Positions 60,855 to 61,020 of a stretch of 64,000 bases of DNA are shown here, piece after piece (the stretch's first letter is position 1; every line of letters begins with the position of its first letter). Origin of the DNA: a virus. Its lineage: Duplodnaviria > Caudoviricetes. Where the stretch lies: the IMG/VR virus record IMGVR_UViG_3300029305_005185, positions 116,868-180,867 of that record; one strand, given 5' to 3'. Both the position numbers and the translations under genes were made by a program. The notes beneath the pieces were generated by a model that saw only the letters and a list, made by a program, of their open reading frames with translations, searched no databases and had not been told where the DNA came from.

Positions 60855-61020
60855 TGGGGATTCGCCAAGTGGTAAGGCACGGGACTTCGTAGAATAGTTT
60901 AAAAGTAAAACGTCTCTCCCTAGAGGAGTGCCTTTACTGGATAAAAAGATATCAGTGCAAGACTGGTTTCTACGACCATGACTCCCGCATTCGCAGGTTC
61001 AAGTCCTGCATCCCCAGCCA
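60855..61020 (+). tRNA. tRNA-Gln(TTG) split in the anticodon (halves 60855-60887 and 60979-61020)
   Basis: Joining the halves gives TGGGGAT...CGGGA-CTTTGAC-TCCCG...ATCCCCA-GCCA. Confidence 0.88.
60888..60978 (+). tRNA. Nested 91-nt tRNA-like element with CUA triplet and CCA end, inside tRNA-Gln
   Basis: Acceptor CGTAGAA/TTCTACG plus A-CCA; D stem GTTT/AAAC; loop CCCTAGA; T arm ATCAG-TGCAAGA-CTGGT. Confidence 0.75.

Follow-up and report, generated by a model that had tools for sequence, protein, structure and literature searches.

A candidate tRNA-shaped intron in a phage tRNA-Gln gene and its relatives in four tRNA species of large gut phages

Architecture of the locus

The stretch analysed here, referred to as the window, comprises 64,000 nucleotides (nt) and forms the terminal 64 kilobases (kb) of the 180,867-base-pair (bp) virus record IMGVR_UViG_3300029305_005185. 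At 60855-61020 it carries a transfer RNA (tRNA) gene for glutamine whose anticodon loop is split by a 91-nt element that is itself shaped like a tRNA and appears to be an intron. The parts of the locus are as follows.

60855..60887, plus strand: 5′ exon of tRNA-Gln(UUG), positions 1-34; the joined exons are called tRNA-Gln(ttg) by ARAGORN
60888..60978, plus strand: candidate tRNA-shaped intron, 91 nt; Rfam tRNA model 35.4 bits, family model R1 82.5 bits, covariation
60979..61020, plus strand: 3′ exon of tRNA-Gln(UUG), positions 35-76; joined exons and Rfam tRNA model

The 5′ exon consists of the acceptor strand TGGGGAT, the D arm, the anticodon-stem strand CGGGA and the loop residues C32, U33 and U34, the last of these at 60887. 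The 3′ exon continues with U35, G36, A37 and C38, followed by TCCCG, the T arm, ATCCCCA, G73 and a CCA that ends at 61020. ARAGORN at default settings reports no gene at 60855-61020. Once 60888-60978 is left out and the exons are joined, the program recognizes a 75-nt tRNA-Gln(ttg), in agreement with a preliminary description of the locus in which excision restored a canonical tRNA-Gln(UUG) with the insert between positions 34 and 35. The pairs U1-A72, G2-C71 and G3-C70 together with G73 of this outer tRNA match glutamine identity elements. Over 60855-61017 the Rfam tRNA model scores 46.0 bits with a 95-nt insertion. In intron mode, ARAGORN places the junction one base off and reads Arg(tcg). 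This reading is wrong, as 59 viral contigs contain an uninterrupted tRNA-Gln in which the D arm and anticodon stem are the same and the loop is CTTTGAC. The junction letters of tRNA-Gln permit no equivalent slide.

The whole genome has 27 tRNA genes by ARAGORN and none of them is another tRNA-Gln, so the insert must be removed to yield the phage's only tRNA-Gln(UUG). The window's own tRNA-Gln has no insert-free allele among the sequences found; the nearest is L040, which has the same acceptor and a different T arm. A promoter and terminator scan gave three sites, against 2.3 expected, and no terminators.

Twenty-four sequencing runs from animal gut or feces were considered, of which X24 is recorded as RNA and X23 is guessed to be RNA. 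X24, X23, X1 and X7, in the form of Logan contigs rather than reads, were compared with 60600-61300 at 88% likeness. The nested junctions are covered in other samples by L019, a separate metagenome contig, by record 13 of X23 (60871-61008) and by contigs of X7.

Structure of the inner element

The element is a cloverleaf from its first base to its CCA. A 7-bp acceptor stem, CGTAGAA/TTCTACG, pairs 60888-60894 with 60968-60974 and is followed by TA, the D arm GTTT-AAAAGTA-AAAC (60897-60911) and a single G. A variable hairpin at 60913-60929 then forms a weak arm with CTA at 60920-60922, preceded by C33. It leads into a 21-nt variable region (60930-60950), the T arm ATCAG-TGCAAGA-CTGGT (60951-60967) and the tail A-CCA (60975-60978), with no spare base between acceptor position +1 and the ACCA end. 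The anatomy given in the preliminary description was thus reproduced, including the C33, the weak anticodon stem and the TGCAAGA T loop. By itself the element lies above the Rfam tRNA cut-off of 29 bits, and ARAGORN makes no call on it. Against Rfam at expectation values (E) up to 10, the insert has no match to a ribozyme, group I or any other family.

Folding of the single sequence is unremarkable (z-score −1.63, with 14 of 200 shuffles folding equally well; −1.6 to −1.7 across the folds run), so the structural case rests on covariation. In the minimum-energy fold, the ‘anticodon’ arm becomes 5 bp closed by a CCCU tetraloop, with part of the CTA inside the stem.

Covariation was assessed for the pairs of a cloverleaf specified by the analyst, using 13 distinct full-length sequences aligned with MAFFT. 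Cells of the cloverleaf are paired in 96.3% of cases, against 78.0% in shuffles (none of 500 as high) and 36-56% in controls with slid partners. All seven pairs of the acceptor stem and three of the five pairs of the T stem are altered on both sides while both stems remain 100% paired; the D stem is invariant among the 13 sequences and is uninformative either way. RNAalifold independently yields the acceptor, D and T stems; within the variable region it also closes TTTACT with 2 bp that covary (C-G or U-A). The T-stem pairs survive in the strain variants of runs X7 and X23, which differ at 60951, 60952 and 60966.

The outer tRNAs also covary between insert-bearing lineages: the Gln acceptor is TGGGGAT/ATCCCCA in one and AGTCGTG/CACGACT in another, and the outer Ile and Lys stems differ likewise. 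By this comparative measure, the inner and the outer folds are both maintained by compensatory change.

A family in four tRNA species

Relatives of the insert were detected in 15 metagenome loci and, besides the window, in 11 viral contigs. When viral contigs were scanned with sequence patterns, seven showed the nested arrangement; the 15 loci came from metagenome contigs searched for a D-arm-to-T-loop pattern. A variable-loop-to-T-loop pattern gave 40 loci, seven of them previously known, and among the 33 new ones R1 selected four further contigs. Since these patterns required exact matches to the D arm and T loop, or to the variable loop and T loop, part of the invariance seen in the searched motifs is due to ascertainment. 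The D-arm-to-T-loop pattern had no match in the genome-contig collection, and no relative of the insert was found in the GenBank phage collection. With filters off, the intron is the only strong R1 match in the window. Of the 11 viral records searched with R1, record G007 has two copies and the other 10 have a single one; on 59 control loci with tRNA arrays the model finds nothing above 45 bits. The insert-bearing records measure 104-217 kb and represent about four lineages.

Four tRNA species serve as hosts, as identified after removal of the insert by script.

Gln(ttg): window, L019, L003-L009, L013, L015, L020, L023
Gly(tcc): L012, L014, L016, L017, L024, L025, L026, L123; L128 has the same flanks
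Ile(tat): L018, L021, L022, L125, L127
Lys(ttt): L125, 61-nt variant

Rather than being absent or decayed in relatives, the nesting is present there, and ARAGORN recognizes the restored outer tRNA in 18 of the 19 family members tested: 14 of 14 in one set (five Gln, six Gly(tcc) and three Ile(tat)) and 4 of 5 further ones. The inserts vary in length from 61 to 93 nt. The 61-nt variant retains the acceptor, D arm and T arm only, which together form the tRNA elbow and the 12-bp stack. Scored alone with the Rfam tRNA model, three of five inner elements exceed the cut-off (window, 35.4; L012, 34.5; L018, 38.2 bits), the mini-element of L125 falls just under it at 28.6 bits, and the Group A element L004 has no match at E up to 1.

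Boundaries of the insert

The insertion point lies after position 34 in tRNA-Gln(UUG) and tRNA-Lys(UUU), and after position 36 in tRNA-Gly(UCC) and tRNA-Ile(UAU). Whichever the host tRNA, every insert begins at its own acceptor position +1 and ends with its own tail. The tails ACCA, TCCA, CCCA and ACAA end 4 nt past the acceptor stem in five of six subtypes.

An empty site was found for one member of the family. Record G007 (211,823 bp) has a 61-nt insert in tRNA-Lys(UUU), between CTT and TTAA, and its sister record G008 (216,868 bp) has a syntenic tRNA-Lys with the same flanks and the uninterrupted loop CTTTTAA. The gap in their alignment is exactly 61 nt, running from acceptor +1 through ACAA. 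The intron boundaries are thereby fixed by an insert-free tRNA-Lys orthologue, which belongs to a family member and not to the window's own gene. Between the two records, the tRNA-Lys genes differ by compensatory changes in the acceptor and anticodon stems, and by sequence both look functional. A search for an uninterrupted homologue of the Gly host tRNA gave no match. Alternative boundaries in Gly and Ile would create a UCA anticodon; it is only the boundary rule and ARAGORN that exclude them, not an empty-site allele. As judged across these hosts, the putative intron defines its own ends, which coincide with tRNA ends independently of exon context.

The insert therefore displays the features of a tRNA-shaped phage tRNA intron, namely a site in the anticodon loop, restoration of the tRNA on removal, a tRNA-like fold and precise presence or absence, the last of these from G007 and G008.

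The CUA triplet and the decoder question

The window also contains, at 34061-34151, a canonical-looking 91-nt amber suppressor tRNA with a Gln-type acceptor (U1 unpaired with U72, G2-C71, G3-C70 and G73). Its 21-nt variable arm is unusual for a Gln-type tRNA.

The preliminary description ascribed the same layout to the insert and proposed that the excised inner RNA decodes the amber codon UAG or acts as a switch for the Gln-recoded code. The likeness holds for length (both 91 nt), for the similar D arms and for the 21-nt variable region, and 50 of 91 aligned columns are identical. It does not extend to the family model: R1 gives the amber tRNA 32.8 bits, about what it gives an ordinary tRNA-Thr (32.4 bits). 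In the phage of L128, the 91-nt amber tRNA has a different D arm.

Apart from this resemblance in length and D arm, a decoder is favored by the CTA at the anticodon position of one possible 7-nt loop and by the score of the inner element above the Rfam tRNA cut-off. The triplet, however, occurs in only 2 of the 13 distinct full-length sequences, the window and its close relative L019. The other full-length members have at this site a hairpin of 4-6 bp with a loop of 4-6 nt (GAAG, GAGA, GGAA, TTGAAT and others): TCTATC-GAAG-GATAGA in the Group A Gln introns, CTTG-GAGA-CAAG or a GGAA loop in the Ile introns, and a 4-bp stem with a 6-nt loop in the Gly introns. In the 61-nt Lys variant the arm is missing altogether. 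Even in the window, the CTA follows C33 on a 4-bp stem with a U-U mismatch, and the alternative 5-bp fold with the CCCU loop is the one of minimum energy. The T loop is TGCAAGA in all aligned members, which departs from the usual T-loop form. A functional amber suppressor should have a 7-nt loop with U33, a conserved anticodon, a canonical T loop and a call by a tRNA finder, and the inner element has none of these. The lack of an ARAGORN call, the failure of the Group A element L004 to match the Rfam tRNA model, the indifferent R1 score of the amber tRNA and the presence of a separate canonical amber tRNA at 34061 all speak against decoding as well. We consider a decoder or code switch very improbable and abandon that proposal. 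On the pattern of substitutions, the inner RNA is a putative tRNA mimic and not a decoder, with the CTA being a lineage-specific accident in a variable hairpin.

RNA ligase, kinase and phosphoesterase genes

Three genes in the window encode candidate enzymes for resealing the outer tRNA; their link to the intron is conjectural.

41054..42460, plus strand: phage RNA ligase with an N-terminal OB fold and a nucleotidyltransferase domain of the Rnl2 superfamily; candidate sealing enzyme
11081..11713, plus strand: polynucleotide-kinase-like P-loop kinase; candidate end-healing enzyme
11706..12260, plus strand: metallophosphoesterase adjoining the kinase; candidate 3′-end healing enzyme

The ligase matches phrog_968 ‘RNA ligase’ (E 9e-74) and the Pfam families PHA02142 OB (31 bits) and RNA_ligase (26.3 bits). 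The kinase matches Pfam AAA_33 (56.8 bits) and phrog_505 ‘polynucleotide kinase’ (2.7e-16), and the phosphoesterase matches phrog_547 ‘phosphoesterase’ (1.6e-42) and Pfam Metallophos (22.1 bits). Immediately downstream of the ligase gene, at 42554-43327, lies an HNH homing-endonuclease gene (phrog_559, 8e-33).

A match to an ATP-dependent ligase, either Rnl2-like or Rnl1, is present in 11 of 11 insert-bearing phage records, that of G006 being doubtful. Matches of the PF09414 type occur in G000-G006, G009 and G010. They reach about 61 bits in G001, G002, G004 and G005; the G009 ligase scores 39.7 bits and is 40% identical to that of the window, and the G010 ligase is 69% identical. G007 and G008 lack the PF09414 type and have a T4 Rnl1-type ligase (PF09511) at 54-55 bits. 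The window's ligase protein itself has no homologue in G001, G006, G007 or G008, where other ligase types are found.

All 11 insert-bearing records also have the P-loop kinase (AAA_33), and in nine of them it and the ligase are no more than about 2 kb apart. In G001 and G007, a polynucleotide-kinase-like domain is fused to an HD phosphohydrolase. On one strand, L141 437-3474 (G001:C1:93236-96273) encodes such a polynucleotide kinase-HD fusion and an RNA ligase, with a nucleotidyltransferase of the RlaP family between them. From their predicted domains, these gene sets are putative heal-and-seal RNA repair cassettes. RtcB is absent from the six records searched, and annotation of 10 further open reading frames at 35-54 kb gave no nuclease candidate.

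A proposed splicing route and its alternatives

Bacterial RNase P recognizes the stack of acceptor and T arm together with a 3′ NCCA, and in phage T4 the enzymes Pnkp and Rnl1 reseal tRNAs that have been nicked in the anticodon loop. In the route that we propose, host RNase P would read the inner acceptor/T-arm stack, the elbow and the NCCA tail and would cut 5′ of 60888, leaving the 5′ exon with a 3′-OH. A second endonuclease would cut between 60978 and 60979, a candidate being an RNase Z/BN-type cut after CCA. The exons would stay joined through the outer acceptor and anticodon stems, and the phage RNA ligase would seal the anticodon-loop nick, whose ends the phage's kinase and phosphoesterase would heal where necessary. 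Splicing probably proceeds in this way, by RNase P, a 3′ endonuclease and a ligase, to judge from the shape and boundaries of the insert and from the genes that co-occur with it.

We thus read 60888-60978 as a tRNA-shaped intron without an open reading frame, a member of a mobile family residing in the anticodon loops of large gut-phage tRNA genes and removed by the route above, and assign this reading a probability of roughly 55%. That the insert is an intron was already suggested in the preliminary description. This part is supported, in each case by comparison, through the restored tRNAs, the self-defined ends, the empty-site orthologue and the ligase gene in the window; the accompanying view of the inner RNA as a UAG decoder is not. 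More generally, and more tentatively, with the odds somewhat against us, large gut phages may use a ribozyme-free form of tRNA splicing that combines a tRNA-mimic intron, host RNase P with an endonuclease acting at tRNA 3′ ends, and a phage RNA-repair ligase. The released RNA may then be a product in its own right: a strongly conserved tRNA-like RNA could act as a decoy for host defences that target tRNA, or could be the mobile form that is ligated into cleaved anticodon loops.

Several observations weigh against this picture. The D loop, the T loop and TTTACTGGAT are conserved beyond what RNase P recognition alone would need. In one Gly lineage (L014, L016, L017, L024, L025 and L123) the tail is 3 nt long, ACA, so that strict recognition of CCA does not fit all members and a fixed ruler of 4 nt does not either. 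In L128 (2760-2925, minus strand), the outer D loop of the tRNA-Gly host lacks 7 nt and ARAGORN does not recognize the tRNA after excision, which may reflect decay or an assembly slip. The ligase matches in G003 and G006 lie under the Pfam cut-off, and that in G006 could be a DNA ligase. Among control phages with an uninterrupted tRNA-Gln and a record length of 100 kb or more, 9 of 16 also have a ligase match, six of these being weak PF09414 matches that are possibly DNA ligases, as the window's own DNA ligase matches likewise; the contrast of 11 of 11 with 9 of 16 is weak and at best suggestive, because the 11 records represent about four lineages. A gene resembling RNase Z is not shared, Lactamase_B_2 being found in 2 of 11 records. 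The repair cassettes suit 5′-OH and cyclic-phosphate ends, which RNase P does not make, and this complicates the RNase P route; the cassette may serve ordinary repair after anticodon nucleases and lend its ligase to the intron; alternatively, one or both intron cuts may leave ends in need of healing.

The RNA run adds nothing in favor of splicing. X24 has no contig on 60888-60959 and is silent on a free inner RNA. It does contain a joint from 60887 to 60979, in one contig (depth 44.3, side 21, four other letters) within a 1261-nt record otherwise unlike the window. This joint was rejected as evidence of splicing, being another organism's intact tRNA-Gln. It is non-diagnostic because the DNA runs X1 and X7, in their loose ends, and the 59 viral contigs contain the same uninterrupted form; nor is the CUU/UGAC junction alone diagnostic, since many bacterial and phage tRNA-Gln genes have the same core.

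The points concerning end chemistry lend some weight to a variant in which the intron is the same and its removal differs: an unknown or dedicated metal-independent endonuclease, or the RNA itself, would leave a 2′,3′-cyclic phosphate and a 5′-OH, which would be healed and ligated without RNase P. The kinase in all 11 insert-bearing records and its place beside the ligase in nine would fit such ends, as would the kinase-HD fusions of G001 and G007, RlaP in G001 and the pairing of kinase and phosphoesterase in the window. The very strong conservation of the loop sequences and the lineage whose 3-nt tail misfits a tRNA-end ruler point the same way. The boundaries, however, are exactly tRNA +1 and the tail, and the 61-nt variant has kept just the acceptor, D arm and T arm, the parts read by tRNA-end enzymes. 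With no ribozyme or other Rfam match on the insert at E up to 10 and no candidate nuclease identified, we regard this chemistry as unlikely, at about one chance in four, yet as the foremost competitor.

A selfish or dead insertion, which disrupts the tRNA gene and is never removed while host tRNA-Gln serves the phage, would account for the lack of spliced RNA in the runs examined, for the abundance in the same samples of bacterial tRNA-Gln genes with the same core, and for the D-loop deletion in the outer tRNA of L128. It is improbable in view of the 18 of 19 outer tRNAs that are intact after excision, the compensatory differences of the outer stems between insert-bearing lineages, the maintenance of the inner stems too, and a genome without another tRNA-Gln. 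An artefact of assembly, or a chimera, was also considered, since the record was assembled from a metagenome. It is hardly credible given the same nesting in L019, record 13 of X23 and the X7 contigs, and the diverged versions in the other viral contigs and metagenome loci.

Comparison with known systems

Bacterial tRNA introns are textbook group I ribozymes. Group I introns share with the insert a mobile habit and a site in the anticodon loop of bacterial-type tRNAs, whereas the insert is 61-93 nt long, lacks a group I core and has a tRNA fold; a group I intron was rejected for the window's 91-nt insert, which has no Rfam group I match at E up to 10. The introns of archaeal and eukaryal tRNAs are removed by protein-dependent splicing followed by ligation, and they lie canonically at 37/38, in contrast to 34/35 or 36/37 here. 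An intron of their bulge-helix-bulge type was rejected because inspection found no such motif at the junctions and the positions are wrong; a splicing endonuclease gene was not searched for. Protein-only tRNA splicing is not known outside archaea and eukaryotes.

In mitochondrial tRNA punctuation and in the MALAT1 mascRNA, a tRNA-shaped element is freed by RNase P at its 5′ end and an endonuclease at its 3′ end. The flanks are not rejoined in those systems, whereas ligation would be needed here for a functional tRNA. The T4 Pnkp/Rnl1 repair has the same final reaction as that proposed here, the sealing of a nick in a loop held by the tRNA stems, and the insert-bearing phages encode both a kinase and a ligase. 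What is sealed in T4 is damage inflicted by a host anticodon nuclease, whereas the nick here would be programmed by intron excision.

The phenomenon itself has been described before, contrary to the earlier statement that no equivalent was known. Introns in tRNAs of Lak megaphages were called ‘enigmatic’, and one of them, in tRNA-Thr(TGT), ‘itself may encode a tRNA’ (Devoto et al. 2019, PMC6784885). A 2026 survey reports tRNA introns as frequent in alternatively coded jumbo phages and remarks that they ‘could encode another tRNA’ (PMC13037316). In our literature search these were the only two descriptions of the phenomenon; the search returned no mechanism for such introns and no ‘tRNA-like intron’ or ‘nested tRNA’ in a phage setting. 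The Lak introns, as their description has it, resemble the present family in being inserts in phage tRNAs whose removal restores the tRNA, in their highly conserved sequences and in their presence or absence between related genomes, and Lak phages too are phages of animal and human guts with suppressor tRNAs (PMC6784885). The Lak phages differ in size (about 540 kb, against 104-217 kb here), the hosts in the present family are Gln, Lys, Gly and Ile, and the likeness is drawn from the published description; the passage on the Lak introns proposes no mechanism (PMC6784885). The survey statement on jumbo phages concerns the same phenomenon and comes without anatomy, boundaries, family analysis or mechanism (PMC13037316).

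The insert is thus of a known but mechanistically unsolved kind of intron. What is added here is a single sequence family in four tRNA species, together with boundaries that the insert sets itself, an allele in which the site is empty, a minimal form of 61 nt, an association with repair cassettes and the refutation of the decoder idea.

If the proposed route is correct, phages have turned universal tRNA-trimming enzymes and an RNA-repair ligase into a splicing machine. The locus offers a compact test system, with a 166-nt precursor, the ligase in the window, variants in four tRNAs, the 61-nt form and an insert-free orthologue. Default tRNA finders miss such genes, and phage tRNA sets are undercounted as a result, Gln being the case here.

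Neighbouring features

Directly downstream of the locus, at 61026-61140, lies an acceptor-less tRNA core. It scores 56.5 bits with the Rfam tRNA model, positions 6-65 of the model falling at 61063-61125 with the loop CTTATAA. An 8-bp helix, AGACACAT/ATGTGTCT, clamps the core, and CAGCAA follows the 5′ strand of this helix.

At 54622-54768, a tRNA frame with a perfect acceptor (GCCAAGG/CCTTGGC), a D arm and a T arm surrounds an AT-rich insert of about 87 nt that holds the hairpin CTGTATT-GAAA-AATACAG. In intron mode, ARAGORN reads it as tRNA-His(atg) with a 60-nt intron, and it scores 21.2 bits with Rfam and 9.7 bits with R1. The genome lacks His and Cys tRNAs, and this frame may be a second interrupted tRNA of another type.

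Unusual tRNAs were called by ARAGORN in L125 (825-902, 2179-2275 and 2858-2930) and L022 (7642-7719, 8996-9092 and 9675-9747), both in 212-kb phages bearing Ile and Lys introns. They include 8-nt anticodon loops with four-base anticodons (tttt, ggta) and a 97-nt tRNA-Arg(ccg). Finally, the head of the tRNA-rich region of the window encodes a NADAR-domain protein (35102-35578, 87 bits) and a YqeY/GatB-like protein (36163-36618, 60 bits).

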